A DNA stretch of 64,000 bases from a virus. Positions within the stretch are counted from its first letter, which is position 1, and each line of letters starts with the position of its first letter. The notes beneath the pieces were generated by a model that was not told where the DNA came from, ran no database searches, and saw nothing but the letters and a program-made list of their open reading frames with translations. The DNA lies in the IMG/VR virus record IMGVR_UViG_3300045988_123324, positions 1-64,000 of that record; one strand, given 5' to 3'. Positions 13,055-52,111 of the stretch are shown here, piece by piece. Position numbers and translations under genes: made by a program.

Positions 13055-13077
13055 TTAGATCATCTCCTTTAATGATT

Positions 13078-13329: not shown

Positions 13330-13411
13330 ATTTTCTTCCTCCTCATAATTATCCAAACCATCTTTTGTCTATACACTAACATAGTATTTTATACTTGTCA
13401 AGTGCTTTTGC

Positions 13412-13917: not shown

Positions 13918-13922
13918 TCAGC

Positions 13923-15334: not shown

Positions 15335-15399
15335 CCACCCAACTAATGCTACTACTATTGCATTAGCTGCTGCTAATAATATTTCCGTAGTTAATCACC

Positions 15400-21720: not shown

Positions 21721-21749
21721 ATTATAACACATTATTATTAAAAAATCAA
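21721..21749 (-). promoter_or_regulatory. sigma70-like promoter upstream of the fibre gene
   Basis: Minus strand TTGATT (21744-21749) - 17 nt - TGtTATAAT (TATAAT at 21721-26, extended -10). Confidence 0.5.
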
Positions 21750-24700: not shown

Positions 24701-24988
24701 TAACTTGCTGTGCATCCCATATTCTTCTGTATATGGGTCTGCTCTAAATGCACCATAGTAAGATACAATAGGATTCTTTATCAACACTCTGCCTAATGCT
24801 ACGGGTATTGGACTTCCTATGCTGCTTGTATTATCTGATGTATATTTTGATGCTTTTTGTGTGGCTGTACTTCCACTCTTTTTACCTCTATTAAATAACA
24901 TCAATAGTAATGTACTAATACCCCAGCCCACAAATGGATTCAATCCATGAGACTTTTCTCCTGCGGATACAACTTGATACTGTTCCAA
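21746..24988 (-). CDS. tail tip / host-specificity protein (GTA g15 / lambda J-like)
   Basis: 1080 aa. N-terminal hydrophobic segment followed by SIGSPIPVALGRVLIKNPIVSYYG, resembling the G.PIP.vyG..r..G motif of GTA g15/J-type proteins. Sits after the gpL-like gene. TTG start behind GGGGGTGA. Confidence 0.65.
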   Translation of the reverse strand: MEQYQVVSAGEKSHGLNPFVGWGISTLLLMLFNRGKKSGSTATQKASKYTSDNTSSIGSPIPVALGRVLIKNPIVSYYGAFRADPYTEEYGMHSKLNVKDILIPLLIEIILILATPNKVITSDGKPAKEIDQKWKNKMMMSAVYNAILTLLMWLFNKHFGRTTIQKGFKYYLGWQHIICWTGDNIGVKRLWMNVYDSKVEASTEKGVWDNNNSIAWENDNTDGITAFINDEGMFGGVDEGGGFVGEVRYYFGNRHQPKDQWMIEQMTKSDKIPADLKGLTPQYPMYLTCVISDKDKSRGAYIGKQATIPEMWFEVANYPDRLSKKYPNRGLEIKIGQDANPAEVIYEILVNNYWGCDYNTDEDVIDEESLIKLGLTCQKEKLGISCLINNVSKAGDYINNIMVHISGVKYDDPKTGKLTFKLLRNDYDVNEIKVFDPSNCVGMEFSRLDWSETTSSISLTFTDAENKYDEGTLSVNDLANTLITKRNKESTVDGSYFTTVENARYMAKTQLLTAAYPLSSINFKCNRYGHDVTIGDPIMVSWEPYGIDKQVYRVTDVDYGSLTDGQISITAVEDVFGFELTDYRYASIPDWTEPEKLPEEIKQFLFMEMPYETTMSLDTYIDAWAARPNDVAYSWSIWRYENGTYNKNETTSNWSMVGRMIAGTDENYGIDNSIEIKAIGNQTDELLKKKMADIKDNPQSINNRSGMNLFVADGEIMSYGSIDQLPNGNFVLKDVIRGVYDTVPRKHFATSYCYFFDTKRDVNKNRPVARAGMTSKESLEVTSATTEKAQDFDKDKTTNILTARRSESPSIMGNLQFSANKGNKSVFKYNFPAGTVFTCGLRFKFNNRNKFSDIGIKSHLDNPVDIPNSTVGIVRVSCNGREFEMSYDLTNNGEFFSKWEEFCSKMRNRIMDSNQAHIEILTYDSAKGLYSYDKYEKDIIINVPRIVGIVERVEDVQDYMDSIVRETNIFIPDTTVSKQQTMLFDDGALVLIGKKGGTTNLVKGQDGQMYDISGYVAYRLDGVDIDNSTHPPILHPIYHKIVMEEEFIFRNNFNSFGNNTTDYFRIRSGNVIKYDLYVKS

Positions 24989-25001
24989 AATATATCACCC
25001 C

Positions 25002-25901
25002 CTAAACTCCCATTGTATGAATCCTGCCATGAGTATCACGTTCTATCACAGCATCATCAATCCAATATCCAGGTCTATTATCTACTGGATGTTTAAACGC
25101 ATCATATGGTTGTATATATGGTATGCCACTAAAGTTATCTGTATTTTTAAACTTCCTATGGCAAGCACTAAACAAACAATCACATCCTGGATACACCATA
25201 AATTCACTCATTCTATCGCTTGGATTGATTGGATATTTTATAGTAATAAATTCACCCTTATGCTCTTTAATCGCTCTAATGGCATGTCCCATGACAACGT
25301 ATCCGTTTGTAAAGTATCCATCTTCTTTTGTTGCAAGTTCATGAGACTGTATCTTTAGATGTTGAATACCACCAAATCCACCAACAGTCCAACAACGCAA
25401 CCCATAATCATCTTTATTCAAGTTGCATTTAGCATCATATATTCTATTCTGACAAAAATAAGAGAGTTTACCTACTGGTATCTCTCTATTTAATACATTT
25501 TCAATCGTTATAGTCAGTGTTGCTTCACTGTTGTTAAAAGATACTTGACTTACTATGCCTCTGAGTATTCTAATGTATTCTCCTTCGTGCATACGAAATA
25601 TTTCAACTCTTACAGAATCTTGCTCTGGTGGTGCTCCTTGGTAGAGGAGAGCTACATTATTTGTGCGGTTTACTGTTATTGAACAATTTTCCATAGTACC
25701 ATTACTATTTCCAAGCTTTAGGCTGTCACTTCTTTTTATATAGTCTGGTATAAAGTTATGCCAAACATTATCTATACTTACCTGCTGATATCTGTAACTA
25801 CTTGTATAAGCAAATTCTTCTCCATTATATTTAAATAAATATAGCTCTATCGGCGCAGCATCTTCTACTGATACTTCATGTGCTTCATACACTACCTGCA
25901 C
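25002..25901 (-). CDS. tail hub protein (lambda gpL / DUF2163 + phage BR0599-like)
   Basis: C-terminal YPGCDCLFSACHRKFKNTDNFSGIPYIQP matches the BR0599 Cys-rich signature. Earlier FCQNRIYDAKC supplies additional Cys. Confidence 0.6.
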   Translation of the reverse strand: MQVVYEAHEVSVEDAAPIELYLFKYNGEEFAYTSSYRYQQVSIDNVWHNFIPDYIKRSDSLKLGNSNGTMENCSITVNRTNNVALLYQGAPPEQDSVRVEIFRMHEGEYIRILRGIVSQVSFNNSEATLTITIENVLNREIPVGKLSYFCQNRIYDAKCNLNKDDYGLRCWTVGGFGGIQHLKIQSHELATKEDGYFTNGYVVMGHAIRAIKEHKGEFITIKYPINPSDRMSEFMVYPGCDCLFSACHRKFKNTDNFSGIPYIQPYDAFKHPVDNRPGYWIDDAVIERDTHGRIHTMGV

Positions 25902-27210
25902 CTTCTTTCTTCTCTTTCATCTTCCGTGCTTCTGCTCTCTTCTTTTTCTTTTCTTCCTCGGTCAATATCTCTGGATCATTCACTTCTCGCACAGAGAACT
26001 GAACTTCTGCAACAATATTTGATTCGTAGTTTAACTGTATTGCATCATCATTGAATCTAACACAATTAAAATAGGAGCACATCAATATGTCCTCTTTCTT
26101 CGCATTAAACCCTACGGCACTATCAAAAATTAACTTACCATAAGTTATATCGTCCTTTAATTTTTCATACGTATATGATTCAATCTTTAATATGTATGAC
26201 TTAAAGTCTTTTGTAAAGATTACAAGATATTTCTTTCTTGTGTTGGATAAATAAAACTTATACATTTTGTTGTATGTTGTGTATATTGCATTATCAGACG
26301 CTTCTACATCTCTGTCTATTTGAAAATCATTTACCCATGTTGGCATATAAAAACTCTTATACATCCCGCACATACGTCTAAAAAACTTCTTAAAGTTTGC
26401 TATCTGCTCATGACACATAAGATAGATGTCATAGGTATGTATATCATAGCTGTTACAGTTGATAAGGTCATATGTAAATATTCCTGTTGCATTATCTAAT
26501 CTAGCAACACCTTTATCAACAGTCAAGCCAACTGATGAATCATCTATCCATTGTGGATTATTAAAAAACACTTCTTTTCCATTGAATGTCTGTGGTAGTT
26601 TAAATGTATTATAGTGCTTGATATTCTCTTGATATTCAAACTCATCTTTGTAAGGAAGTTGTGTCTTTACTGATTCATTAAGATCCTCAAAAGATAATCC
26701 AACTTCTGTACCATTACTATATATGTATTGAAGTCCTGCATTTGGCTGTACGGAACATTTCTTTAGACCAAAAATCCATGTATTTTCTTTGAGTAGCGGT
26801 CTTGGTATCTTTTTGATGAGCATTATCTTTTCGTCATCATATCTTTTTACTTGTTTAACAATATTTATTCCTGTCTGGTTTACATCATCTCTCACAAATA
26901 TTTCTATATACTCGCAGTCAAGAAGATTATAAATGTATTTTGTATCTATGTATAATGCCTTGCCATTCTTGATAAAATCCTCTTTTAGATATACTGGTTG
27001 ATGCCACATTGGTATGTAATAAACGTCTGTGTGTCTCATTCGCAATATCCCTCTTAGATATTGTGCCTGATATGTGTCCATAGCCGAATAATCATAAGTG
27101 AGATAATGTCTAGGAACCTGTCTTGTCTTTATCCTTTGCTCGTCTCCATTATACATTTTTATTATATCTGTTTTGTATTCAAACTTTTCAGTGATTTTTG
27201 TATTAGACAT
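25885..27210 (-). CDS. tail tip/distal tail protein (lambda gpM / GTA g12 DUF2460-like position)
   Basis: N-terminal KTDIIKMYNGDEQRIKTRQVPRHYLTYDY resembles T.i....G.EQR......R.y.y of DUF2460 proteins. Synteny with the gpL-like gene. Confidence 0.4.
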   Translation of the reverse strand: MSNTKITEKFEYKTDIIKMYNGDEQRIKTRQVPRHYLTYDYSAMDTYQAQYLRGILRMRHTDVYYIPMWHQPVYLKEDFIKNGKALYIDTKYIYNLLDCEYIEIFVRDDVNQTGINIVKQVKRYDDEKIMLIKKIPRPLLKENTWIFGLKKCSVQPNAGLQYIYSNGTEVGLSFEDLNESVKTQLPYKDEFEYQENIKHYNTFKLPQTFNGKEVFFNNPQWIDDSSVGLTVDKGVARLDNATGIFTYDLINCNSYDIHTYDIYLMCHEQIANFKKFFRRMCGMYKSFYMPTWVNDFQIDRDVEASDNAIYTTYNKMYKFYLSNTRKKYLVIFTKDFKSYILKIESYTYEKLKDDITYGKLIFDSAVGFNAKKEDILMCSYFNCVRFNDDAIQLNYESNIVAEVQFSVREVNDPEILTEEEKKKKRAEARKMKEKKEGAGSV

Positions 27211-27222: not shown

Positions 27223-28167
27223 TTAATAAGCCCAGTTCGGTGACAAGTCGAGAAATTCTGGAAGCAGCTCATTTTCTTCCTCGTCTCTCTTTAGTGTTAA
27301 GAATTTATATACTCCCCAAATTAACCACGGTTCATATACAGGTCTGTTGTTTAAGAACTCATCTTGACGCAATATTGGACATAGCCACGGGAATAGCGTT
27401 ATTGACAGTAGTGGCAACAGTATGTGGAACTGTAGTGCCTTGCCTTTGAATATCTGCTTATTATGTTTTGCGTCAACCGCTCTTATACTATGTCCGTATA
27501 ATTTATTTATTTCTGGTGAATATTCTTCATTTCTCGGCAGTCTCCATACTTGACCTACATTATATATTTCAGAAATAACAAGATTCTTTTTAACTGTGTA
27601 GGTCTTAAATCTTGTAGGTGCATAAGGTATAATGCTTCTTCTGACTTGATAATTATGCTTATCATCAATACTATATTTATCTCTTTTTTCTGCAACAACA
27701 ATGTTCATTATTGGAGATTCGCCATAGTTCTTCTTTTTTAGTTTTGCAGGAATTAAAAATGTTCCTTTTAATGCTCTTGCATCTATTATTATAATAAACT
27801 GATGGCTCTTATGCACCTTAAAATCTATGTGCATATCTGCTATACTTTTTACATTAGGTACATTATAGACCACTGTCCCATGTTCATCATATATCTTAAA
27901 CTCATGCCTACTTGCGTGGTATATGTACTTATATCCATTGATTAGTGTCCACACTCTTTGTCCGTCTGGTTTACCATATTTTAGATTTAATAAAAACCAT
28001 ACTTTTAGTGGTATCTGATCTCCATGTAATGTCCTTATTCCATGATCTAGCACATCACAGTCTTGAACAAATATTCCATTAAAGTATGGTTTTGCGAACC
28101 AAATCAATTCATCTGTTGATGGCATGAGTGACTGAGTAATGTCTAGTATACACGCCTTTGTACCCAT
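27223..28167 (-). CDS. hypothetical protein, last gene of the paralogue block
   Basis: ORF track; ATG; no recognisable motifs. Confidence 0.55.
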   Translation of the reverse strand: MGTKACILDITQSLMPSTDELIWFAKPYFNGIFVQDCDVLDHGIRTLHGDQIPLKVWFLLNLKYGKPDGQRVWTLINGYKYIYHASRHEFKIYDEHGTVVYNVPNVKSIADMHIDFKVHKSHQFIIIIDARALKGTFLIPAKLKKKNYGESPIMNIVVAEKRDKYSIDDKHNYQVRRSIIPYAPTRFKTYTVKKNLVISEIYNVGQVWRLPRNEEYSPEINKLYGHSIRAVDAKHNKQIFKGKALQFHILLPLLSITLFPWLCPILRQDEFLNNRPVYEPWLIWGVYKFLTLKRDEEENELLPEFLDLSPNWAY

Positions 28168-28170
28168 AGA

Positions 28171-29508
28171 TTACACCCCATAGGTTCTTGTTGTATCTGT
28201 TGTTATATCTCCTGCAAAGCTATCGGAATCATCCTCATTCTGTCGAATACTAATCGCATCATATCCAAATCTTCCACGTCTCATTGAGTGCGAGAATATC
28301 TGACATAGATCCCCCGACCTTGGATAACTCATTTCATACACGCCTGTTGACTGCATATTTAAGCTACAAGCAAAGTATACACCTGCTACTTGTCCTGCCC
28401 CAGCATAGTTATTAAGTATATCTGGATCTACTCTTACTGCCACATATATTGGCATATTTAGTGTTAAGCAGTTCAGTGTATTTATATCTCTTCCCCAATC
28501 AAGATTTCCATTTGACTGCAAGTCCTTATAATGTGGAATCTCACCATTTCCACCGCCTAGCACCCTTACTGGAAGTGACATTGGTTTCCCAGTTACATTA
28601 TCTGTTCCACTACTTGCCCACCTTACTTCTCCACGCTCTTTGTATGGTGCTTCATCAATATCTATTCTTAGGAATGTGTTTGAAATCTGTCCACTACTCA
28701 ATACTGGCAATATACTACCATCTGCTATGGCATGGAATGACGCATAATCCTTTCTTGGATGACCGTCCTTATCAAGAGGTAGTGGATTAGCCGAGTAATC
28801 ACGTTCAATCCTAAAAATATTTCCTGCCTCTTTCATTAGGTTCGGTACAGATGATCCACTGAAAAACATTCCACCTTCCCAAGAATCATATTTATATAGA
28901 TTACCAAACACTAGATGAACGCATCTATAATCATGTCCAACTCTCACATCACCGCCAATATTTTCTGCAACTACCGAAAATACAAGTGTGTCATTTGGCT
29001 TTAACACATTATTGCAATATAGCTTATACTTATTCTTGTTTACTATCTCTGGTGTGTCAGATTTAACAAGTGTCTGCTCCGTATCCTCTCTAGGGATGAC
29101 TGGAATCCACACTGCCTGTACTTCTTTATTTCTGAATTTTGTAGGTACTTGAAACTGATTATACCATCTCTGTTTCTTTGAATACCCCTCTCCTACTGTT
29201 GCACCTATCCCATAAAAGTTCTTGTGCTTATGCTCGTCCTCAATGGTGCTATCATCTATTGCATCCATATCTGCATCATCATTTAGCCCAAAAATATCTG
29301 TACCATTTGCACTTCTTAGATATATAAAATATGTATTAGTTCTATCCATAAATACGAACTTCTTGCCGTCCACTGAATCTCTCTTATATATGTTCGTATC
29401 ATCCTTCAAATCCTCTACTACGGAATACCCTCTTGATTTTATATATTCTACCATCTTGGCAAGAACTTCATTTGGATTTTTCAGATTCTCATAAACTACA
29501 TATGCCAA
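28171..29508 (-). CDS. paralogue-block protein (shared core family)
   Basis: Track ORF starts at 29550 (ATG, 38-nt overlap). The TTG at 29506-29508 behind GGGGGT fits the family N-terminus better. Shares the HLVFGNLYKY..GG and GVY...RRGRFGYDAISIRQNE motifs with its neighbours. Confidence 0.6.
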   Translation of the reverse strand: MAYVVYENLKNPNEVLAKMVEYIKSRGYSVVEDLKDDTNIYKRDSVDGKKFVFMDRTNTYFIYLRSANGTDIFGLNDDADMDAIDDSTIEDEHKHKNFYGIGATVGEGYSKKQRWYNQFQVPTKFRNKEVQAVWIPVIPREDTEQTLVKSDTPEIVNKNKYKLYCNNVLKPNDTLVFSVVAENIGGDVRVGHDYRCVHLVFGNLYKYDSWEGGMFFSGSSVPNLMKEAGNIFRIERDYSANPLPLDKDGHPRKDYASFHAIADGSILPVLSSGQISNTFLRIDIDEAPYKERGEVRWASSGTDNVTGKPMSLPVRVLGGGNGEIPHYKDLQSNGNLDWGRDINTLNCLTLNMPIYVAVRVDPDILNNYAGAGQVAGVYFACSLNMQSTGVYEMSYPRSGDLCQIFSHSMRRGRFGYDAISIRQNEDDSDSFAGDITTDTTRTYGV

Positions 29509-29512
29509 TTTA

Positions 29513-31183
29513 TTACCCCCTAACCCCGACAATGCTTGTAATCTTAACATCGCCGGTATCTGCTATTTTAAGCGTCCGATCTGTTTCTATAGTTACATTA
29601 TACACTAAATTAGCGTCTCCTGTCAAGTTTACTGACAGATTAGCTAAGAACGCATTTTCTAATTCTTCTGATGTTATTATGTGTTTTGTATTCTTATTTG
29701 TTGTGACAATAATTTTATCATATGACAATATTTTATCACTCAACATAATCAAATCCATGTCTATTAATGACAATATTTCCTGCTTTTTATAATACTCAAA
29801 CATTACTATTACTTGATTTTTGTTGAAAAACTTTCCCATTAAAATATACTTAGATACATTATTATTATCTCTCTCAACAATCACATCAAAATTATGCTTC
29901 CCAACACCAGATATTAAACTAACACAATCATTTTCCAGTATTGCGGATAATGTGTTTGTATCAAATGGTTGTCTTGTGACATAATATATTAATGGGAATC
30001 TTGTTGTTGTGTTGTCTAATGATGATAACAATTTATTATCATTTCTATGTCTATTATAATCATCTTCTGCTGAAAAATCTGATGTTGCATCCATCTTTGG
30101 TATACCACCTATAGAATAATACTTCTTACTTACTGGTGGATCATTTACTTTATATGTGCTGTTTGCACTATAAAAATCATCCTGTAACACAAACGATGTA
30201 TCTAACCTATTCTTCAAATACCTTCGTACACATCTTATAACCCCCCGCTTATATGGAACATTATACCATGTTAAATAATTCGTCTGTGTTTTTGCCATGT
30301 AGAAAAAATGAAATCTCTTATCATCTCTCCAATTCTTATCCATAGCCAACACCCTATTTGTTGCAACTAAAATATCATTACTGTCCAGATTTAATATATA
30401 TTTATGTTGGTATATAAACGTTGATGATTCAGTATAGAACTCCCTCTTTGGATTATTATAGAATATAGAAATAAATCCTTTATTCTTAACTATCAAAATA
30501 GAATCGCTACGACGCAATTCTCTGCTAAATATGAAGAATCTATATACAGCTATCATACCATTAAATATCTCTGGTTTATAGTTTGCACCAAACTCAAAAC
30601 ACTTTTCTAACTCTTTTTCATCCGCAACTATTTGTGGTACTGCATCTGATATACTAGCCCCATATTTCTGCTCTTGATACGTTTTTGTCTTATCATACTC
30701 AAATAATATATCATACCACAAATCATACTGCCTATCTCTATGTGAGTTGCATATTTCTATGTAAAGGTATGAGTTGGTTTTCTTGTCATACAGAACAACA
30801 TATTCCTCTATTATTCGATTTAAGACATCAACTATATTTGTGTCATTTCCTATTGCGTCTCCTGTCCTAGCATACTGAGACCTATCTGCCGCCACCATAT
30901 CTATATATGGTTTCTTTTTCGTACATGCTACAAACGTGGTTGAATCTTTTGGTGATGTATCGTCTGACTCTATATATAGTCTATCATCGTCTGGGTCATA
31001 TGGAAATTTAGTCCCACCATTTTTTGTTTTGTCAACCTTCCACTGTTGCGTTTCCTCCACAACTGTTAGTCCAAACTCAATCATGGCATCTTTTATTATT
31101 TTCAGTAACTTCTTTTTAACATCAAGTTCGTTGGAGAAGTCCATTATATTTTGTAGGTCACTGCTTGTGTATTCTATTTTCAT
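29513..31183 (-). CDS. paralogue-block protein (divergent member)
   Basis: ORF track; ATGA overlap with the upstream gene; weak similarity in N-terminal and C-terminal elements. Confidence 0.55.
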   Translation of the reverse strand: MKIEYTSSDLQNIMDFSNELDVKKKLLKIIKDAMIEFGLTVVEETQQWKVDKTKNGGTKFPYDPDDDRLYIESDDTSPKDSTTFVACTKKKPYIDMVAADRSQYARTGDAIGNDTNIVDVLNRIIEEYVVLYDKKTNSYLYIEICNSHRDRQYDLWYDILFEYDKTKTYQEQKYGASISDAVPQIVADEKELEKCFEFGANYKPEIFNGMIAVYRFFIFSRELRRSDSILIVKNKGFISIFYNNPKREFYTESSTFIYQHKYILNLDSNDILVATNRVLAMDKNWRDDKRFHFFYMAKTQTNYLTWYNVPYKRGVIRCVRRYLKNRLDTSFVLQDDFYSANSTYKVNDPPVSKKYYSIGGIPKMDATSDFSAEDDYNRHRNDNKLLSSLDNTTTRFPLIYYVTRQPFDTNTLSAILENDCVSLISGVGKHNFDVIVERDNNNVSKYILMGKFFNKNQVIVMFEYYKKQEILSLIDMDLIMLSDKILSYDKIIVTTNKNTKHIITSEELENAFLANLSVNLTGDANLVYNVTIETDRTLKIADTGDVKITSIVGVRG

Positions 31184-33447
31184 ACTAGAATCTCCCCCAA
31201 TCTTATGAGTGTTCTATATAGAATCTTATTCCGCTTTTCGTCCATTTTCTTCTTTTCATATTCCTCAACTGTATCAAGTGGTTTCCATTCTTCATTTACA
31301 ACTTCAAGGTGTACTTTATAGTGATAAAGTCTCTCATCCCACACGCAAGGTAGATTCAAATACATTCCATCATTAAATTCTATTAATCCAAGTGGCATTA
31401 AGTAATCATAATGTATATATACGTTTGGAACACTACCAAGAAAATAATGAGCCTTATCAACACCATTGGCAACAATAGATATATCATCCATCTGTATATT
31501 ATACTCTCTAGCTTCTTTCTTTATTGTGTTATACTTCTTTTTAGTATTAATAAAAAATCTTTTCTTTTGGCTCATTGGATTTTTAGTTATCATAAAATCT
31601 GGTGTAAAATTACTTGGCTTTGCTAATCTTGTTGCATATGTTGGTGATGGTGCTCTACATTCAGGATAACCCACTGTCTCTGCCCCCTGTGATAGTGTAT
31701 ATATGCTTCTCCATTTTGAATCCTCACACAACACTTTGAAATTACTCCACCTAGCATTATAAAACTGTGTTGGGTTCACAATATCTGAGTTTGACATAGC
31801 TATATTTTTAACATTTAGATCATACACGTTACCATCTGTATAGGTTATACCTCCTTCTGATTGATATACATATATATCATTAGCAAGTCCCGTTGCTCCT
31901 CCTGCCACATATAATGAATACCTTGTGTTGGTTTCTCTGTGTGACTGTTCAAATCTACCAAATGATATTGCTGAGAATATTTCTTTCTCTCCTGTGTCTG
32001 TTTTATCTAAGTGCATTACTATACTTGCTGATGTGTTATCACGCCTAACTATAAACTCTATTGGGCATTTTACATCATTTCTACTTTTGTATTGCTCCTT
32101 GTTTTCTTCTGATATTACAAACCAAGGACAACCAGTTCCATGAAAAACTGGTGGCGGTATCATCTGTACCTCATGACCTCCTGGTGGACACCACTGACGA
32201 ATTTTTAATAAGTTACAAAACTGTTTAACACCGTCATTTGCTGTCACCCATTCATCATATCCTGTCGCTCCAAAATATTCGCATGAAAATAGGTTCTCAC
32301 TAAATCCAAGAGAAACACTTACTGTTATAAACTCACCGCTATTCTTGAATAAGTTCCAATGAGTTCCATCATTACAATATTTAGACTCCCATCTCCATGA
32401 TCCATGTATATCACCAGTTTTATATGATTGCTTATTTTGCTTTCCGTCTAGTGGATATTTACCATGAGTTCCAAAATATTTTGCATAAATGGTATCATTC
32501 ATATTGCTTCCGACAAAATAATGATTGAATGTTATATAATAAGAATTTTTCTTTATTCCAAATAATTTCTCTATTACTTTTCTCTTTATTTTATCATATA
32601 TGAACTGTAAATATCTCTTTGTGTAGTTTTCAGTTTCTACATAATAATGTTCAAAATACTTCTGCGATAATGGCTCATCTTCATTAGTTTTATATAGCCA
32701 CCCATATTCTCGCTCTATCTGATCTCCTGTATATGTTCCCTCTACATGGCACTTAAACTTTATTATATTTATGTGCTTATAAATATATTCTGCAATATCA
32801 AATATCAACATCTCATAATCATTTTGTCTTAACTCATTTATATGTGAAGTAAAATCATTCAATGTATTTGGTACTGTAGTAACTACACAACACTTTATAT
32901 TATTTTCTGAACACAGAACATCAAGTTCTTTTAGCTTATCTCTTTTTGGCTCCGACGTATTACACACAAGGTAATCTATATCTTTATGTGCTTTTACATA
33001 ATCAATCACTTTATCTAGTGTATTTAGTTCTGTAGCCCCATTTGAATAGTCTCCAACAACGTCTATTTCTGCATTTGGGAATATATCTTTTATTTCATCC
33101 TTTACAGAATAATACTTTGTGACCGCCCACCTATTATCTAATTCTGTCATTATTCTATTATATTCTGGATTTCTATATAGAATATTTTCTGACATCAACC
33201 ACTTATCCCCAACTATTGCCACTTTAATGGCTTCTTTTCTTTGTGTTGGTGGTTCTAGTGGCACTTCATATGTACTACCATAAAAAGAGTGGAAGCGGTC
33301 ATCTACCTGCTCCCACTTCTGTAATTTATTCCCATGATCTTCTGAGGAATCAAACTTAAAGGTATCACCAATCACATAGGAGTTGGCGATATTAAAAAAG
33401 TATTTGTCAAATTCTGCAAAACTTGTCATTTTATTTATTGCATACAT
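31180..33447 (-). CDS. paralogue-block protein, close paralogue of 35495-39046
   Basis: Collinear matches: FHSFYGSTYEVPL / SFFGSTLKIPL; HGTGCPWFVISEENKEQY / PGTGCPWLTISNRNKSQY; LYVAGGATGLA / LYVAGGNQALV; FKVLCEDSKWRSIY / FRVLCYDGKWRDVF; VWDERLYHY / GWDERLWHY. Confidence 0.65.
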   Translation of the reverse strand: MYAINKMTSFAEFDKYFFNIANSYVIGDTFKFDSSEDHGNKLQKWEQVDDRFHSFYGSTYEVPLEPPTQRKEAIKVAIVGDKWLMSENILYRNPEYNRIMTELDNRWAVTKYYSVKDEIKDIFPNAEIDVVGDYSNGATELNTLDKVIDYVKAHKDIDYLVCNTSEPKRDKLKELDVLCSENNIKCCVVTTVPNTLNDFTSHINELRQNDYEMLIFDIAEYIYKHINIIKFKCHVEGTYTGDQIEREYGWLYKTNEDEPLSQKYFEHYYVETENYTKRYLQFIYDKIKRKVIEKLFGIKKNSYYITFNHYFVGSNMNDTIYAKYFGTHGKYPLDGKQNKQSYKTGDIHGSWRWESKYCNDGTHWNLFKNSGEFITVSVSLGFSENLFSCEYFGATGYDEWVTANDGVKQFCNLLKIRQWCPPGGHEVQMIPPPVFHGTGCPWFVISEENKEQYKSRNDVKCPIEFIVRRDNTSASIVMHLDKTDTGEKEIFSAISFGRFEQSHRETNTRYSLYVAGGATGLANDIYVYQSEGGITYTDGNVYDLNVKNIAMSNSDIVNPTQFYNARWSNFKVLCEDSKWRSIYTLSQGAETVGYPECRAPSPTYATRLAKPSNFTPDFMITKNPMSQKKRFFINTKKKYNTIKKEAREYNIQMDDISIVANGVDKAHYFLGSVPNVYIHYDYLMPLGLIEFNDGMYLNLPCVWDERLYHYKVHLEVVNEEWKPLDTVEEYEKKKMDEKRNKILYRTLIRLGEILV

Positions 33448-35493
33448 TTACATTATCTCCTCTCCTATGTAATATGCCAATCCATAATTATTTAGATAAC
33501 CATATCCATCATCTGTTTTTATTGGTGAATCTATATGATGAGCACCTGTAAACTGTATTTTTTCACTACACCACTTTTGATTTAGTGTCCACGGATTCTT
33601 TCTCTTGCCCAATGAAAAACAACCATGATACTCATTTACTGTCTCTCTAGGTGTTAATACTGCCAAACTACTCATATTAAACATACTACAAAAGTTTATA
33701 TCATTAGTCATTCCAATCTTACTGAATGTTCCAAAGGAATCATCTTTTGGATCATCTTTACCTTCATCCTTTAATCCTACTGGGTTTCTCCTAACATAGA
33801 ATATAGTAGGTAGTAACTCAGTGCTTGTGTTTGCTGTATTTATATCCGCATTACATTTTCCTGCACTTTTTGATATAGTCTGTGTTATAAACTTATTTTC
33901 ATTATAGTTTGGAACTTCTTGTGTAAATTGATATGATTCTAGATCTGGATTCCAAAACACACCAACACCATCTTCTGTTGTGTGTTTAGTTATTGATGTA
34001 AATAATGGCTCTGCACTAAAATTACAATTCATTGGAGATGATACATTCCCACCAAATTTTGTGTGTACGAGTGTGCCAGTCTTTCTCTTACTTGCATCAT
34101 ATCTAGGCAGGTGGTCATAGAAATTCGTCACAAACCATGTGCTTGTACCATGAACATCTACCATCTTCTTTGTTGCCATATTTAACATCTTTGTAGTCTT
34201 TTTATCCGAATCATCAACAATAACTTTTATTGCCCCCATTAGATAGTTATTATTTTCGTCTCCAAAAGAATCTATTGCCATTACATTAGTATTTATACTT
34301 ACTCCATCTATATCATCACTATCTGGCGCAATTTCAAGATTTACTATATTGTGTGTAAAATCTCCATGCCATAGCTTATGAATCTCTTTAAGCAACTCAT
34401 CTGATGGATGCTTTTTATCTTTCATCTTATCATATAAGTCTTTAATTTGCTTTTTCATTTGTTCTACGTCTTCTTTTATTGCATCCTCTAGTTGCTCATT
34501 TAGTGGTTTTGGTGGTGGTGCATATATATCTGGCTGTGTGTGATATGCTTCATCCATTTTCTGCTGCTTTGCTTTTTCCATGTAGTCTTTAGTTTTTTGT
34601 GTTATTGACTTCTTAAACTCGTCCATTATCTTATTAAGTGCATTTTTAAATTCTGAATCATCTTGTATAGGCTCATTAGCTTTTGCAAGTTCATACATCT
34701 TTATCAGATTCACTAACTTTTCTGCATCTTCTATTGCTTTATCGTATTCCTTAACTCTAACATTTCCAACACCTAAGTTAGTATATAATGGCGTAACATC
34801 ATCATATTCATCTAATCCGTATCCACTTCCATGAAAATTAGCCTTTTGTGCAAGTATAGCAAATCCACCTTTTATTAGCTTATCTTCTTGCTCAAAAAAT
34901 CCAAAAGTATAGTGGGTTGAAGTCTTTGGATACTCATTTGTTGTTAATATAAAAGAAAACAACCCACTATTATAATAACAGTCTAGGCATAGCACATTTT
35001 CATTTTTTGGAACATACAGAGAAAATGTCACCCTAACTGGAAATTTACCAGTAATTCTTCTCGGAACTTTCTTAAACTTTCTTATCTTTGATATACTTTT
35101 AGATATTTCATCCCTATAATATTCATCCGCAAATTCTTTATAATATAATCTAGTTTCTTTTATTATACTATATGCTTTACCATTTGCTTCTTCTACTTTA
35201 GCCCTTGCTTTTGCTGTCTCAACATCATCCAACTCATTAACCTTCATATCTATATGTTGATGTGAGTATATCATGTAGTCTTGTGCTTCCTCTCTTTTAT
35301 GTGGGCTATTAGTAAAATATGCGGAAGCACTTAATTCAGAATCAATATTGACCTTGACATACATTTCCTTTTCTGGATATTCAATTTTAAGAATACTACC
35401 AGAATCGATTATCTTCCTATCTGGTAGCATATCTTTTATAAACTGCTTTGCTTTTTCCTGCCAAGAATCAACATTCATATATCTTTTGTGCAT
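33448..35493 (-). CDS. paralogue-block protein (divergent member with long helical insert)
   Basis: ORF track. HYTFGFFEQ..GGFAIL and the C-terminal YGLAYYIGEE echo the family core and tail. Confidence 0.55.
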   Translation of the reverse strand: MHKRYMNVDSWQEKAKQFIKDMLPDRKIIDSGSILKIEYPEKEMYVKVNIDSELSASAYFTNSPHKREEAQDYMIYSHQHIDMKVNELDDVETAKARAKVEEANGKAYSIIKETRLYYKEFADEYYRDEISKSISKIRKFKKVPRRITGKFPVRVTFSLYVPKNENVLCLDCYYNSGLFSFILTTNEYPKTSTHYTFGFFEQEDKLIKGGFAILAQKANFHGSGYGLDEYDDVTPLYTNLGVGNVRVKEYDKAIEDAEKLVNLIKMYELAKANEPIQDDSEFKNALNKIMDEFKKSITQKTKDYMEKAKQQKMDEAYHTQPDIYAPPPKPLNEQLEDAIKEDVEQMKKQIKDLYDKMKDKKHPSDELLKEIHKLWHGDFTHNIVNLEIAPDSDDIDGVSINTNVMAIDSFGDENNNYLMGAIKVIVDDSDKKTTKMLNMATKKMVDVHGTSTWFVTNFYDHLPRYDASKRKTGTLVHTKFGGNVSSPMNCNFSAEPLFTSITKHTTEDGVGVFWNPDLESYQFTQEVPNYNENKFITQTISKSAGKCNADINTANTSTELLPTIFYVRRNPVGLKDEGKDDPKDDSFGTFSKIGMTNDINFCSMFNMSSLAVLTPRETVNEYHGCFSLGKRKNPWTLNQKWCSEKIQFTGAHHIDSPIKTDDGYGYLNNYGLAYYIGEEIM

Positions 35494-35494
35494 A

Positions 35495-38400
35495 TTATAC
35501 TATCAACTCCTTAAATGTTAATTCTGGATTTGCTTTACTGAATTTATCTATCTGCTCTTTCTTACAGTAGAACGGATAATGTTTCATATTTCCACTCATG
35601 TCTACTACGTGGAAAACTGTGTCTGAATATATATTAAACCTTATCTTATTATCCTTTTTAGGTTCTGGGAAGTGGTCTACATACAATAACTTTACTCTCT
35701 TACATAGATGTATTTGAACATCCCAATATTCTATATTGTGAACATCTAAATATACAGAATCTCTTACTCCCTTAAAATATATATTCTTGAATGTACTTTC
35801 ATATATGTGAATCCATGATTTTTTATCATCAACAATATTCTTCTCATAGAAATAAAAATCTGTCAAGTCATTTGGATCTTTTCTTTCGAGATTCGCTGTT
35901 CTCATTTTCCCGCCAAAGAAATCACTGCAAAAATCTTCTTTTAGTTTATTGGTCTCGCCAGTTCTCTGTAGAATCATCCACCATGTCTTGTCCTGATTTT
36001 CAAATATATCCTCAAACCTACCATTAAGTTGATAATTTACAAGACTACCTAGCCAATTACTTGATATAATCTTTTCTTCTTGACTATATCTTTCTTTCTC
36101 TCCATTTGATTCTCCTAATAATGGTTGATCTGGAACTACAAACTCTTTTCCTTCTGCATCCAGTTCAGTTTGAACTAATCCATCAATATTATACATCTGA
36201 CCTATATTTGGTTTATGATCTAAATCAAACTTTGGTCTTTCTACTGTATAATAAAAATCTGGATTTATCTTATAGTCAATTTCATCATTTTCTCTCGGAA
36301 CTGTTGCTCCATCTATACTCAAGCCACCACAAAACTTCATCACAGAGTCTACTATCTTCTTCTTATCAGTTAGCTTTTCTTTTTCGTCATATACAGGTAA
36401 TTCTTTTCTTACTGGCACTTCTGCAAAGAACTGAACAATTCCTTGATGTCTGTCTAAGTCTTCATGTAACTTAAATGTATTCTTATAACTATCATTATTC
36501 TCTGCATATATAGTGATTACATAATTTCCTTTATCTTGATATATGTGTCTCATTCGTGTTCTATATCTTCTCTTATTTACCCCATCACTATAATGTCTGT
36601 ATTCAGTTAGATTCTCCCACCCAGTGTAATACTGATACTCTGAGCCATCTCCCCAATCTACTAGTAATGTTCTTCCATCTGCATAGAATTGAAGTTCTGT
36701 TATCGTTGGATAATCAATAAACTCTATCTTATAATCTTTGGTATCGTCCCCAGTGTTGGAAATTCTTGTGATAATTTTCCGTGTTATTCCAACTGGTTTT
36801 TCTATGTGAATATATAATTCCATTAGTTTTCTTCTCTGTTCAGTATTTTCATTATCTTTTGTGATATTATTTTCTGCCCCTAAATCAAAATCTCTTATAT
36901 GTTCTACTTCACCAGTTTTTAATAACAGTTTAGTATTTATTTTATTTTCATTTCCCTCATAGTGATTTTCTCTATCATGATATGATTTATATGCTTGCTC
37001 GTTAGAAACCTGTGTGTTATAAACAGCACTATTTATTCCTGCCGCATTTTCTCCACCCCAATATATTCTTCCAACATACCAAGGATAATGCCACAGTCTC
37101 TCATCCCATCCATTAGGTACTAATACATATCTACTGTCTTTAGTCTCTAATTCTCCGCTCTCTTTATCAAAATCTGGAACTATGTAACAATTATCTATAA
37201 CGCCATGTATGTTGTGCTCGTCCTCACCTTCTTTTGGCTTTATAGATACCTCTACTGGATTCTTTAATAGGTGTCTATCCTTCAAATTATACTTTGGCTT
37301 ATTTGGTCTATACACCTCATCAAGATGTTGTTTTGGCTTATGTATGTGACTTGAATTACTATCTATATATGAGTGTTGATTTACTGGAACTCCCCATTGA
37401 TATATAGGTGCTCCGCATACATCAAAATATTTATACTCTGAATATGTCTGCTGCATACTAAACACATCTCGCCATTTACCATCATAACACAGCACTCTAA
37501 AATTAGACATATGTGATCCACCAAAATCTGTTGGATATGCTAAATTACTACTCGATAAGCATGGATTCTTCATGTCTAGCAAATATCTTAATCCGTTTAC
37601 GTGTAAATCTGGGGAAAAATAAACCCATACGTCTGGCACTAATGCTTGATTACCTCCTGCCACATACAGTGGTGGTATGGTTGAATATGTATCATATTTA
37701 AAGCATCCAAATACAAGTGTCTGCCAACAATCAGTATATATTCTACTCTTATCCATTATTCTGAACACTATAGTTGCACACTTATTAGACTTTGAAAAAT
37801 AATACTTTATCTTATTGTCTTTATCAATACCATACTGTGATTTATTTCTGTTTGATATGGTTAGCCAAGGGCATCCTGTTCCTGGATATTCTGGTATATC
37901 AAGTCTTTGATAAGGCGTTCCACCTCTAAAATCCCAAAATGGTAATAGGTTCATATGATTAGTTCCATCGTCTGCCTCTGCTTCACAGGTTATATTTCCT
38001 TGTTCTGTCATCCACAAATCTCTATCATAGGACATATGCAGTCCTACTGCAATCATTTCACCCGCATCATTAAACGCTTGTATACCATCTTTGCCGCGAA
38101 TAGATCTATTTCCAACACCTTCAACCTTGTTTATTTCTTCACTCATCACATCATGTTTTGTGCGGAAAAATTCTTCATAACTCCCACCAGTGATGTTTCT
38201 ATATTGAAATGATGTGTAATATACAGGTCTAAATGTTTTTAACATGATGTTCATGATTATGTCTATCTTTTTCATGAATCTGCTGAATGATTCTTTTCTT
38301 GGTCTATCTAGTACAGACTGTTCTTCCTCTTTTTCATTTCTATCCTTAAAGTGTTTCGGAACATCTTTCTCTCTCCAATAGATTGTAAAATTTGAAAAGA

Positions 38401-39046
38401 ATATGGAGTCATTCTTTCTCTCATACTCTTCTTGTACCCCCACAACCTCTTCCATCGGGTCATTTAGTATTTCGTCCCTAAAATAGAAAAACTGATGCTT
38501 AGACTCTCTAACATCATCTTTATACTTGTTCTTTCCATCATGACTGAAATAGAATAGTCTTAATTCTATCTTCTTTTCTTTGCACCAATCTACAAGTGCG
38601 TCATAACTATCAATGTTTCCATCTGCAAGCATTGTTTCAGTAATCCCACCAAAAAACGCAACATCTGGCAGGTCTGTTTGTTTCTTTAATGCTTTTAGTA
38701 AATTGGTTGCTGTAGCCTTATCTTCTATATTTACAACACTTATATGACTTCCATCTAGCATTTTTTCAAACATAGGAACTAAACTATCCATATGTATTGA
38801 TTTATTGTCATCAAATACTACATTATCAAAGAAATCAGATGAGTTTATCATCCATATTTTCTTATCCCTATACCCCGTGTATTTATATTCCCCAAGCGGT
38901 ATTTTTAAGGTTGAACCAAAAAATGAATCTGATCTATCATCAATGAGTTGCCATGAGACAGTAGATTCATTATATTTTTGAGCAAACACCAAAAACTTGT
39001 CCAACATTTCCTTTAGGGATATTGCTTCCCCTGTCTCATACATCAT
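35495..39046 (-). CDS. paralogue-block protein, largest member, with a PKD-like domain in the C-terminal extension
   Basis: Family core as above. LLVDWGDGSEYQYY...HIYQDKGNYVITIYAEN (about 36480-36720) fits the PKD signature WDFGDGS...H.Y...G.Y.V. Confidence 0.65.
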   Translation of the reverse strand: MMYETGEAISLKEMLDKFLVFAQKYNESTVSWQLIDDRSDSFFGSTLKIPLGEYKYTGYRDKKIWMINSSDFFDNVVFDDNKSIHMDSLVPMFEKMLDGSHISVVNIEDKATATNLLKALKKQTDLPDVAFFGGITETMLADGNIDSYDALVDWCKEKKIELRLFYFSHDGKNKYKDDVRESKHQFFYFRDEILNDPMEEVVGVQEEYERKNDSIFFSNFTIYWREKDVPKHFKDRNEKEEEQSVLDRPRKESFSRFMKKIDIIMNIMLKTFRPVYYTSFQYRNITGGSYEEFFRTKHDVMSEEINKVEGVGNRSIRGKDGIQAFNDAGEMIAVGLHMSYDRDLWMTEQGNITCEAEADDGTNHMNLLPFWDFRGGTPYQRLDIPEYPGTGCPWLTISNRNKSQYGIDKDNKIKYYFSKSNKCATIVFRIMDKSRIYTDCWQTLVFGCFKYDTYSTIPPLYVAGGNQALVPDVWVYFSPDLHVNGLRYLLDMKNPCLSSSNLAYPTDFGGSHMSNFRVLCYDGKWRDVFSMQQTYSEYKYFDVCGAPIYQWGVPVNQHSYIDSNSSHIHKPKQHLDEVYRPNKPKYNLKDRHLLKNPVEVSIKPKEGEDEHNIHGVIDNCYIVPDFDKESGELETKDSRYVLVPNGWDERLWHYPWYVGRIYWGGENAAGINSAVYNTQVSNEQAYKSYHDRENHYEGNENKINTKLLLKTGEVEHIRDFDLGAENNITKDNENTEQRRKLMELYIHIEKPVGITRKIITRISNTGDDTKDYKIEFIDYPTITELQFYADGRTLLVDWGDGSEYQYYTGWENLTEYRHYSDGVNKRRYRTRMRHIYQDKGNYVITIYAENNDSYKNTFKLHEDLDRHQGIVQFFAEVPVRKELPVYDEKEKLTDKKKIVDSVMKFCGGLSIDGATVPRENDEIDYKINPDFYYTVERPKFDLDHKPNIGQMYNIDGLVQTELDAEGKEFVVPDQPLLGESNGEKERYSQEEKIISSNWLGSLVNYQLNGRFEDIFENQDKTWWMILQRTGETNKLKEDFCSDFFGGKMRTANLERKDPNDLTDFYFYEKNIVDDKKSWIHIYESTFKNIYFKGVRDSVYLDVHNIEYWDVQIHLCKRVKLLYVDHFPEPKKDNKIRFNIYSDTVFHVVDMSGNMKHYPFYCKKEQIDKFSKANPELTFKELIV

Positions 39047-39053
39047 ATAGTCA

Positions 39054-39974
39054 TTACTCCTCTATCTTTATAGCAAAATATGTATTTGCCCCTCTATCCA
39101 TCTGTGTGTCAAACACTATAAACTTGCTTCCATCATACTGTAAGATTCTTTCTGCATCAATATCTCTTGCGCCAGAAATCCAATAGCATCCTCTAAGTAG
39201 TCCATTTAAGTCTACAGGATCATTTGTCTGTAGCATTATTGGAATGAGCAAGAAGTTATCCTGATTGATGCTATCAGTTTCCTTGTAGTTAGGAATCAGC
39301 TTTGTGTTGTGTGAAGCATACGGGAATACTGTCCCTGTTGATGAGGGACTTGGATTTGGCTTTGTTGCATTAAACGCTCTCCAATTCCCGTCTGCTCTGC
39401 GTAGCCATCCACTGCCACCATTAGGGAATACAAACGATCCTAATCCTTGTGCTGTCCACTCTTTAGTTCCTGCTACTGTATTACCACAAACATACATTGG
39501 ATATGGATACTGCCTCTCTGATGCAATAGGGTTGAGGAATCCTAGATACATTGATTCATATACGATTGACATTCTACATACAACAACGATTCTGTATGTA
39601 TCTACAAATATCCAATAGAAAAATCTTTCATTCTTAGTTATTGTGAAAGCAGGTTCATTTGCCTTGTACTGTGGTGCAAAATTTTCTTTCTCATCATCAT
39701 ACTTGCCCTCAGACTTTAGATATTGCTGTAGGCATCCTGGCTGTTCAAAGAACCCTAGCTTATCATCGTATCCAACCGCCGAATCAATTATAATCTTATT
39801 CTCTAAGTTGTGATAACTAATCATTATATAAATCTTATCTTGCCCACTACCTGTTCCACAATAAATATAAGTATCCTCTGATAGCTTATATGGTGTCCAT
39901 CCAACTGCCACCAATGCCTTTCTTATCTCATCAAATAGTATGCCTATACTATAGGTATTTCCTGTTACATACAA
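39054..39974 (-). CDS. paralogue-block protein, minimal (core-only) member
   Basis: 306 aa with TTG start 7 nt after AAGGAGTGA. MYLGFLNP...YPMYVCGN, ADGNWRAF, LLRGCYWISG and YFAIKIEE align with the larger members. Confidence 0.6.
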   Translation of the reverse strand: MYVTGNTYSIGILFDEIRKALVAVGWTPYKLSEDTYIYCGTGSGQDKIYIMISYHNLENKIIIDSAVGYDDKLGFFEQPGCLQQYLKSEGKYDDEKENFAPQYKANEPAFTITKNERFFYWIFVDTYRIVVVCRMSIVYESMYLGFLNPIASERQYPYPMYVCGNTVAGTKEWTAQGLGSFVFPNGGSGWLRRADGNWRAFNATKPNPSPSSTGTVFPYASHNTKLIPNYKETDSINQDNFLLIPIMLQTNDPVDLNGLLRGCYWISGARDIDAERILQYDGSKFIVFDTQMDRGANTYFAIKIEE

Positions 39975-39981
39975 TTATCAA

Positions 39982-40239
39982 TCACTCCTTTACAATTCCA
40001 TTAAGAAACTTACTCAGATCTAGTTGACTAAAATCTAGATCTTTCATCCCGTCCATTACAGTAGCTCTAATTTCAATTTCCTGCATATTGCTAATATTCA
40101 TTAAAAGCTGTGATAGCTTATAAGCTACATCAATATTATGATCTTTTGCGTCACCATAAACATTCTTTGATGCAACTCTCTTTAACTGCTCGTTAAAATA
40201 CTCCTCAATTCCACGCACAATCTCTTTTTCTATCTTCAT
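39982..40239 (-). CDS. small hypothetical protein, first gene after the internal promoter
   Basis: ORF track; ATG behind GAGGTGG. Confidence 0.55.
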   Translation of the reverse strand: MKIEKEIVRGIEEYFNEQLKRVASKNVYGDAKDHNIDVAYKLSQLLMNISNMQEIEIRATVMDGMKDLDFSQLDLSKFLNGIVKE

Positions 40240-40250
40240 ATTTCCACCTC

Positions 40251-40304
40251 AAAAAAAAATAAACCTACCAATATCACTAATTATTATAGCATATTAGTAG
40301 GTTT
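40251..40304 (-). terminator. possible terminator/attenuator hairpin after the tape measure gene
   Basis: 12-bp stem with one mismatch (40261-40272/40293-40304), 20-nt loop, then T9 on the minus strand (A9 at 40251-40259). Confidence 0.4.
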
Positions 40305-40311
40305 TTGTCAA
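40283..40311 (-). promoter_or_regulatory. consensus sigma70-type promoter for the paralogue block
   Basis: Minus strand TTGACA (40306-40311) - exactly 17 nt - TATAAT (40283-40288), starting 1 nt after the tape-measure stop codon. Confidence 0.6.
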
Positions 40312-47241: not shown

Positions 47242-47307
47242 GTTTATTTCCTCCTGATAATCGTTATATTTAATTATATCACATTTATCTTTATTTGTCA
47301 AATACCG

Positions 47308-47616
47308 CTACCACCAGCAGGTATAAAAAACTGCCATACCGTTCTTTAGTTCAGCAATAGCTTCATCTACAAGTTCACTATCTTCTGGGTTTTCTTTGGC
47401 TATTTCTCTAAGATCTTTTTCTGTAAGGAATGTTATAGAACAATTAAAATCGTCATAATTGCCTCCTTTTTCCACGAACAATCTTTGCACAAAATCATTC
47501 AGTTTATGATTTTTTCTCCAATAAGCCAATTCGTAAGATCTAAAGTTTTTGTCTTTCTTGATATTAGACAACTTTGCTCTCGCGTCTGTTGAATACATCC
47601 ACGCATCAAGCCCCAT
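47308..47616 (-). CDS. hypothetical protein
   Basis: ORF track; ATG behind GGAGG. Confidence 0.6.
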   Translation of the reverse strand: MGLDAWMYSTDARAKLSNIKKDKNFRSYELAYWRKNHKLNDFVQRLFVEKGGNYDDFNCSITFLTEKDLREIAKENPEDSELVDEAIAELKNGMAVFYTCWW

Positions 47617-47618
47617 TT

Positions 47619-52105: not shown

Positions 52106-52111
52106 GATTTA

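Follow-up and report, generated by a model that had tools for sequence, protein, structure and literature searches.

A 13-kb gene block between the tape measure and tail-tip genes of an uncultured phage probably encodes an enlarged baseplate arm of the JBD30 type

The DNA examined here, referred to as the window, is a 64,000-nucleotide (nt) stretch covering positions 1 to 64,000 of the virus record IMGVR_UViG_3300045988_123324 (IMG/VR), and all of its genes lie on the minus strand. Our subject is a 13-kb block of this window (positions 27,223 to 40,311) in which eight open reading frames (ORFs) separate the tape measure gene from the tail-tip genes. Read from the tape measure onwards these are p85, p306, p1183, p681, p755, p556, p459 and p314, each named after its length in amino acids (aa), and they are followed by a tip core of gene transfer agent (GTA) type, consisting in order of a DUF2460 distal tail protein (Dit), a gpL-like BR0599 protein and a Phage-tail_3 hub. 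The tape measure protein that closes the block on its upstream side contains an internal Phage_lysozyme2 domain (Pfam PF18013, 3e-18). An initial annotation had described the eight ORFs, and their sizes and positions proved correct. It had also proposed that five and probably six of them form one paralogous family that matches no named family, and that the block might be an expanded baseplate or decoration module or else encode cargo or ejected proteins. Our profile and fold comparisons place six of the eight ORFs in the gp47/gp48 superfamily of phage JBD30, with p306, p1183 and p755 predicted to be gp47-like and p459, p681 and p556 predicted to be gp48-like.

The clearest member of the block is p306. 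A PHROGs scan placed it in phrog_687, annotated as 'structural protein' (6e-30), and comparison with the PDB sequences gave a match (E 4e-8) to 8rk3 chain c, described as a 'virion structural protein' of 318 aa. This PDB entry is the baseplate of JBD30, a Pseudomonas phage of the genus Casadabanvirus (Valentova et al. 2024, PMC11445458; PDB 8rk3/8rk5). In JBD30, the genes for gp47 and gp48 are flanked by gp46, which encodes the tape measure, and gp49, which encodes the distal tail protein. The gp47 and gp48 proteins resemble each other in fold and pair as heterodimers. Three arm-like tail fibres project laterally, each built from three such heterodimers; they are anchored to the upper baseplate protein and the distal tail protein and clasp the type IV pilus (PMC11445458). 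At the profile level, the p306 family aligned to gp47/gp48 of phages PaMx73 and BILI with an hhalign probability of 99.2% (E 1e-19). Judged by its sequence, p306 is a full-length homologue of the tail-fibre-forming protein gp47 of JBD30. The family that had been left without a name therefore belongs with JBD30 gp47/gp48 (PHROG 687, PDB 8rk3/8rk5), and phrog_687 itself takes in both gp47 and gp48 homologues. The JBD30 report classed gp47 in the nitrilase (CN_hydrolase) superfamily (PMC11445458). At E <= 0.1, Pfam returned no family, and no nitrilase/CN_hydrolase match, for p306, p755 and p459, and unrelated weak matches for p1183 and p681.

Analysis of p755 and p1183 began from their mutual similarity, which was the only link detected by BLASTP among the block proteins (1e-37). 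In agreement with the collinearity claimed for this pair, residues 1-753 of p755 aligned with residues 2-714 of p1183 at an hhalign probability of 100%. Alignments drawn from seven close IMG/VR relatives were shallow, and hhalign with them gave nothing beyond the p1183-p755 link. More distant loci were subsequently fetched via p459 homologues, and intermediate sequences were used to enrich the alignments for hhalign. A phmmer search with p306 over 1.84 billion representatives yielded 674 relatives at E <= 0.001, of which 143 were used to build a deep gp47 profile. The cores of p755 (residues 462-710) and p1183 (residues 409-652) matched this profile at 96.0% (E 4.9e-9) and 94.6% (E 7e-8), respectively, with reversed-sequence controls at or below 0.4%. 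The profile is gp47-specific, scoring gp47 homologues at about 1e-80 and gp48 homologues at 1e-12 to 1e-15, and it did not detect FoX4 gp30. Alignment of the p306-family profile with the two cores brought together the FG...Y..YV.GG, DG.WR and C-terminal tail motifs. Three of the shared motifs listed in the initial annotation consequently stand for p306, p755 and p1183, while the N-terminal element of about 30 aa was supported for p1183 (69%) and p459 (48%), weakly for p755, and not for p681 or p556. Outside its core, p755 has an alpha/beta domain inserted in its N-terminal half, and the C-terminal part of p1183, some 470 aa, is variable and is swapped out in relatives of 1116-1425 aa. A weak PKD-like signal was detected in this C-terminal part (Pfam 0.024), and Pfam scans of the long relatives gave weak PKD signals and nothing else. 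A PDB sequence search with the p1183 C-terminus returned no match, and homologue searches with p755, whether with the single sequence or with an alignment, recovered the identical nine close relatives and added no depth.

The remaining three members are linked to one another through a C-terminal domain of about 90 aa, located at residues 338-430 of p459, 527-636 of p681 and 376-447 of p556. Comparison by hhalign joined p681 to the p459 family at 95.6% and to the p556 family at 93.2%, and intermediate proteins from relatives aligned at 99.4% to p459 and at 98.3% to p681; PHROG scans of these intermediate proteins gave no PHROG 687 match. A charged helical stretch of about 130 aa occupies the middle of p681. 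The true start of p459 is probably the TTG at 29508, giving a protein of 445 aa: this codon lies 5 nt past the p556 stop, an AGGGGG ribosome-binding site precedes it by 6 nt whereas the ATG at 29550 has no comparable site, and relatives of p459 begin with 'MAYV' in agreement with it. An AlphaFold2 (AF2) model of p459 built from 26 diverse sequences reached a predicted TM-score (pTM) of 0.83 and a mean predicted local distance difference test score (pLDDT) of 75. Foldseek comparison of this model with BFVD returned a 321-aa virion structural protein of Xanthomonas phage FoX4 (E 3.7e-9, probability 1.0, target TM 0.64) and six further phage proteins of 270-353 aa (E < 2e-4). We equated the FoX4 match with gp30 by length alone (gp29 is 324 aa and gp30 321 aa), and gp30 is the second gene past the tape measure, i.e. 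it occupies the gp48 position. BFVD also holds a near-identical entry for p459 itself (99% identity), under the name 'Myoviridae sp. ctqfO1'. Among the ctqfO1 models in BFVD, the p459 model matched that of p556 (E 1.9e-4, probability 1.0) and that of p1183 (E 0.01).

An iterative hidden Markov model (HMM) search of 411 real and decoy ORFs, seeded by the C-terminal domain of the p459 family only, recovered the same group in successive rounds. Round 0 returned the intermediate proteins (1e-23 to 1e-13), p681-like proteins (1e-9), p681 (0.0037) and p556-like proteins (0.005-0.01); p556 (2.8e-6) and the gp48-like protein of BILI (1e-4) followed in round 1, and FoX4 gp30 (7e-5) in round 2, with every decoy at 0.5 or above. 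Against a gp48 family of seven members, the p459 family scored an hhalign probability of 73% (E 3e-5), and the families of p459, p681 and p556 aligned with it at collinear positions. When the C-terminal domains of all three were merged into one profile, the hhalign probability was 85.6% (E 5.6e-6) with the gp48 family and 57% with the gp47 profile, and no reversed control exceeded 0.3%. These results suggest that p459 is a gp48-like protein with insertions. Sequence searches of the PDB with p556, p681 and the p459-family profile gave no match. The gp47-type and gp48-type families, here termed A and B, are themselves mutually related (hhalign 97.6-98.6%). Graded profile support was accordingly obtained for six members being distant paralogues, as had been suggested, though not for one uniform family: the block splits into a gp47-like and a gp48-like subfamily, and the 314-aa and 85-aa ORFs fall outside both. 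The former was tried as a seventh paralogue and rejected, its hhalign probability to every family being 0.5% or lower and its best HMM E value 0.5.

In isolated phages these proteins occur as a single pair. The order tape measure - A - B - Dit - gpL-like - hub was annotated in PaMx73 (D3112-like), BILI (Yuavirus), FoX4 (Foxquatrovirus), Salvo, Birtae, AL-2 and KL1, and one A-B pair was found in seven isolated genera (Casadabanvirus, Yuavirus, Foxquatrovirus, Salvovirus, Kilunavirus, a Queuovirinae Vibrio phage and a Sphingomonas phage). Such pairs include gp29/gp30 of FoX4, gp47/gp46 of Xylella phage Salvo, gp22/gp23 of Burkholderia phage KL1, and those of Vibrio phage AL-2 and Sphingomonas phage Birtae. 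Throughout these isolates the A protein scored 1e-48 to 1e-90 against the gp47 profile, and the B protein matched the gp48 profile. The same A-B pair has been proposed for the Yuavirus-like phage Lydia (gp67/gp68) (PMC11946847).

Classification of every ORF in 19 loci by the family profiles, with three further close relatives (L003, L005 and L009) placed by gene order, revealed that the arrangement follows the formula A-(A'B')n-B. The seven isolated phages have n = 0. Five metagenomic loci (L011, L012, L021, L022 and L023) have n = 1, in the order small ORF - A - A' - B' - B - p314-like - Dit. The window, L003-L009, L013, L014 and L024 have n = 2, in the order small ORF - A - A'B' - A''B'' - B - p314 - Dit. 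A-type and B-type genes were equal in number in 16/17 metagenomic places (the window and 16 loci), and genes were added as cassettes in which A' and B' are neighbours. The synteny survey that the initial annotation had recommended thus shows that the number of cassettes varies (n = 0, 1 or 2). Conservation among close relatives differs widely between members: identity is 90-99% for p306 and 88-98% for p459, 71-94% for p681, 67-97% for p755, 52-96% for p1183, with its C-terminal part replaced, and 42-97% for p556, the most variable member. Some relatives carry an SGNH/GDSL esterase in A' (L011, 1933-4647), in the p314-like protein (L013, 13118-14743; L024, 11602-13206) or in the hub (L013, 16932-21128), which suggests deacetylation of surface polysaccharide during adsorption. 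The window itself contains no SGNH/GDSL esterase domain.

From these results we consider it probable that the block is an enlarged lateral baseplate arm ('tail fibre') module of the JBD30 type, which would make it a known attachment device in larger form and not a system of a new kind. The A-B pair would have expanded to three A-type and three B-type proteins arranged A-(A'B')-(A''B'')-B, and three different A:B heterodimers may assemble (p306 with p459, p1183 with p681, and p755 with p556). Such pairing fits the equal A and B counts and the cassette structure, together with the analogy to the solved JBD30 structure. The small and highly conserved p306 and p459 would form the proximal, baseplate-docking pair, and the large variable members would be exposed, with additional domains that would serve in binding the host or in modifying surfaces. 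The virion location, the pairing, the positions of the pairs and any receptor we infer from JBD30. Each of its arms contains three copies of one gp47:gp48 heterodimer in three non-equivalent positions, and a tentative extension, which we regard as possible though somewhat doubtful, is that tandem A'B' duplication inside the A-B pair gave each of the three arm positions its own heterodimer. If so, the inner pairs would have been free to reach sizes of up to 1183 aa and to gain esterase, PKD-like and other domains, the arm would be a modular adsorption organ of multiple specificity, and the clade would offer a natural series from homo-repeat to hetero-assembly.

Several observations weigh against an enlarged arm of this kind. 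The p755 model, built from 10 sequences, had a pLDDT of 50 and is too poor to confirm a fold; compared with the PDB it gave generic alpha/beta matches alone (E > 0.006). Foldseek comparison of the p459 model with the PDB returned nothing at E < 0.3, and the JBD30 chains were not among its results. Taken individually against the gp48 family, p681 reached an hhalign probability of 23% (to 28%) and p556 of 7%, and the proposed link of both to gp48 comes from the common C-terminal domain and not from their N-terminal 370-520 residues. The local HMM classification was trained partly on the sequences it classified. Locus L010, in which two A-type genes accompany three B-type genes, shows that strict 1:1 pairing is not universal. 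A tblastn search of phage records with p459 identified no cultured relative, and for a clade known from its genes alone the arm location and stoichiometry are drawn by analogy with JBD30.

The unequal counts in L010 would be compatible with the six proteins being instead independent receptor-binding fibres or tailspike-like proteins, in which the gp47/48-like domain serves only as a baseplate anchor; there would then be no A:B heterodimers and no composite arm, and expansion would just add alternative receptor specificities. The variable extra parts of the large members, including the C-terminus of p1183 that is swapped among close relatives, agree with this idea, as do the weak PKD signal, the GDSL esterase in the A' protein of a relative and the high variability of p556. 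We nevertheless consider independent fibres unlikely. The solved homologues are heterodimeric (PMC11445458), A and B counts match in all metagenomic places except L010, and the added genes come as adjacent A'B' cassettes, as expected of obligate partners. Moreover, dedicated fibre genes are already present 3' of the tip core, encoding p1321 (1321 aa), with six CBM5/12 repeats, and p624 (624 aa), with a LamG domain.

The block proteins could also act outside adsorption, as decoration of the tail tube or tip or as assembly factors, for example scaffolds for the very long tail implied by a 2064-aa tape measure. Both p85 and p314 lack recognisable relatives, and the block's own promoter could allow regulation separate from that of the tape measure. 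Six of the eight genes, however, are homologous to lateral arm proteins of the mature JBD30 virion, and arrays with n = 1 or n = 2 show no obvious relation to tape-measure length (1966-3465 aa in relatives), making such a role improbable. Still further down the scale stands delivery into the host as cargo or ejected proteins together with the DNA, whose attraction is limited to the size of the proteins and their adjacency to an ejected protein, the tape measure. No member matches families of internal or ejection proteins, the homologues lie on the baseplate exterior (PMC11445458), and the SGNH esterases of relatives are typical of surface-acting tail proteins; we regard cargo as very improbable indeed. 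Of the roles that the initial annotation had offered, the expanded baseplate module is therefore the best supported, and nothing in our results favours cargo or ejected proteins. The coordinates of the array, its neighbours and its regulatory elements are given in Table 1.

Table 1 Features of the block and its surroundings in the 64-kb window
Feature	Size	Position	Strand	Remarks
Tape measure protein	2064 aa	40313-46507	-	Closes the block upstream; matches PHROG tape-measure families at 4e-18 to 2e-5
Promoter P1		40283-40311	-	TTGACA, 17-nt spacer with TGn, TATAAT; 12/12 consensus positions
Terminator-like hairpin		40261-40304, then A + U9 at 40251-40260	-	Overlaps P1
p85	85 aa	39982-40239	-	Small ORF after tape measure
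p306 (A)	306 aa	39054-39974	-	PHROG 687 member
p1183 (A')	1183 aa	35495-39046	-	Predicted gp47-like core at about residues 409-652 (nt 37091-37822)
p681 (B')	681 aa	33448-35493	-	Predicted gp48-type C-terminal domain, residues 527-636 (nt 33586-33915)
p755 (A'')	755 aa	31180-33447	-	Predicted gp47-like core, residues 462-710 (nt 31318-32064)
p556 (B'')	556 aa	29513-31183	-	Predicted gp48-type C-terminal domain, residues 376-447 (nt 29843-30058)
Promoter P2		29597-29626	-	Perfect TTGACA-18-TATAAT within p556 3' end, about 90 nt ahead of p459 start
p459 (B)	459 aa (ORF)	28171-29550	-	445 aa (28171-29508) from TTG at 29508
p314	314 aa	27223-28167	-	Clade-specific; adjoins Dit
GTA-type tip core		21746-27210	-	Dit, gpL-like protein and hub
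Dit (p441)	441 aa	25885-27210	-	DUF2460; PHROG 1082, 2.5e-47
gpL-like BR0599 protein (p299)	299 aa	25002-25901	-	PHROG 778, PF09356
Hub (p1080)	1080 aa	21746-24988	-	Phage-tail_3; PHROG 1101, 8e-114; PF13550
Third perfect promoter		47273-47301	-	N17 spacer; precedes tail assembly chaperone gene
HNH/homing-endonuclease-like protein	498 aa	47619-49115	-	Weak Mom-like region
DNA methyltransferase gene		5795-6550	-	
DNA methyltransferase gene		53623-54666	-	
DNA methyltransferase gene		61150-61692	-	

Inspection of the start of the block verified the perfect TTGACA-17-TATAAT promoter that had been described 1 nt past the tape-measure stop, overlapping a hairpin and a T-run, and found it to be conserved in relatives. 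The tape-measure TAA (40315-40313) is followed by one base and then by the TTGACA of promoter P1 (40311-40306), whose spacer ends in TGn. The hairpin has 18 bp and a folding energy of -19.2 kcal/mol (z = -3.86), and 0/200 shuffled sequences folded equally well; its 5' arm lies within the promoter spacer and its loop contains the -10 box. A perfect promoter was found right behind the tape-measure stop in 10 related loci, distant ones included (45-55% protein identity), with perfect matches at this position listed for L003-L012, L022 and L023, and an eleventh locus (L021) has a 5/6 -35 box at this position. A hairpin enclosing the -10 box recurs in L004, L011, L012 and L021 with differing stem sequences, which argues for selection on the hairpin structure; in L022 the terminator and the promoter lie apart. 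Three perfect TTGACA-N16-18-TATAAT promoters occur in the window, all on the coding strand, where 0.12 would be expected, and 0/100 shuffles contained at least three. The second, P2, is retained at the equivalent place throughout L003-L009, even in L008 with its p556 of only 42% identity. The third precedes the tail assembly chaperone gene, and the TTG at 47301 given by the ORF caller as the chaperone start is actually the -35 box of this promoter.

The block would accordingly be expected to be transcribed from a sigma-70-type promoter of its own, embedded in the terminator that closes the tape-measure transcript, with P2 serving as a second promoter ahead of p459. Transcripts of the tape-measure operon would terminate at the hairpin and those from P1 would read on, since initiation inside the 3' arm of the hairpin would leave the P1 transcript unable to fold it. 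Such a terminator, whose loop holds the -10 box, may in this way function as a compact insulator, halting tape-measure transcripts and restarting transcription on the spot. The conserved placement of a promoter inside a terminator would represent a compact regulatory design.

The two ORFs that flank the array belong to neither subfamily. A p85-type ORF of 62-94 aa always directly follows the tape measure in this clade, and it evolves rapidly, with 27-47% identity in most of the close relatives in which p306 exceeds 90%. No Pfam or PHROG match and no link to the other block proteins was detected for p85. The p314 gene always lies beside Dit in the clade, and the middle of its product tolerates insertions: in relatives a GDSL esterase is inserted, or the protein reaches about 1275 aa. 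Searches of Pfam, PHROG and the PDB, the last with the p314 family included, gave no match for p314. The tip modules of relatives showed further differences. Additional ORFs that match none of the families described above are present in L006/L009 (16288-16977, 229 aa), L008 (15239-16396, 385 aa) and L024 (9947-11506, 519 aa), and in L012 (12294-15917) the tip order is rearranged, with the hub (Phage-tail_3, 1207 aa) ahead of the p314-like protein, Dit and BR0599. Genes for TnpB/IS605 OrfB (Cas12f-like) lie in or beside the tail module of L013 (11595-12812), L014 (from 20976) and L015 (from 11870); in L013 the insertion separates the p459-like gene from the p314-like gene and is preceded by a perfect promoter of its own. 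The tape measure also varies among relatives. It ranges from 1966 to 3465 aa, is conserved in its C-terminal part only (39-47% in L004 and L007, where the neighbouring p306 exceeds 90%), and carries different lytic domains, namely Phage_lysozyme2 in the window, SLT plus glucosaminidase in L010 and SLT in L022.

The regions flanking the tail genes (window 46774-64000 and 1-15855) were examined as well. Upstream of the tail-tip module are genes for a DnaB-like helicase, a DnaC-like loader, a primase, PolA, a Cas4-like exonuclease, a processivity factor, an RNA ligase and an HNH endonuclease; downstream are an endolysin, a weak match to an Rz-like spanin, a resolvase, a UvsX-like protein and several methyltransferases. 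The 64-kb window contains no genes for capsid, head, tail tube or sheath, and the tail-tip module thus stands apart from other structural genes. A 498-aa HNH/homing-endonuclease-like protein is encoded between the DNA polymerase and tail chaperone genes. At least three DNA methyltransferase genes are present (Table 1), which suggests heavy investment in anti-restriction. The consensus sigma-70 promoters, together with the possible spanin, suggest a host that is Gram-negative and does not belong to the Bacteroidota. A scan of 185,579 species genomes with the p459 family revealed no prophage copy, and megablast of the block against phage records gave no match. The lambda/GTA-type tip would suggest a siphovirus, and the 'Myoviridae' tag on the ctqfO1 entry of BFVD looks like an automated name, which is our assumption.

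An enlarged arm module of the JBD30 type would help to assign structure and function to 13 kb of 'hypothetical' genes from widespread uncultured phages of about 100-150 kb, a group with 232 relatives of p459 that includes gut-metagenome samples. It would also mean that this arm family is far more plastic than its solved example, with one, two or three A:B pairs, large insertions and enzymatic add-ons. Such plasticity and the add-on domains make the block genes prime candidates for host-range determinants, and the A-(A'B')n-B series provides a testable case of a repeated homo-assembly being partitioned among paralogues.

The protein superfamily is common to the window and JBD30: sequence similarity reveals it for p306, profile similarity for p755 and p1183, and a fold search together with profiles for the p459 group. 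The location of these genes, after the tape measure and ahead of the gene for the DUF2460 distal tail protein, is also shared, as is the GTA-type tip core downstream, and in both phages two fold-related subfamilies, A and B, co-occur. The differences are nevertheless considerable. The window has six such genes to the two of JBD30, and five of its six proteins are 1.4-3.8x longer than the prototype of about 310 aa, with inserted or appended domains; only p306 retains the compact size of about 300-330 aa, the others having 445, 556, 681, 755 and 1183 aa. Clade-specific p85 and p314 flank the array in the window, its Dit is about 120 aa shorter and its block has a promoter of its own. The isolated two-gene phages likewise differ from the window, maintaining exactly one pair of about 280-370 aa each (507 aa for the A protein of BILI) and having no A'B' cassettes, p85 or p314. 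The DUF2460, BR0599 and Phage-tail_3 genes of the window resemble the tip genes of RcGTA (g12-g15) and lambda (gpM, gpL and gpJ). RcGTA and lambda have their tip genes immediately behind the tape measure, whereas in the window 13 kb lie between them. The initial annotation had taken such direct adjacency to hold for lambda/GTA-like tails in general; since an A-B pair intervenes in the seven isolated genera, this premise is false for what is a widespread tail type, of which the window would represent an expanded form.

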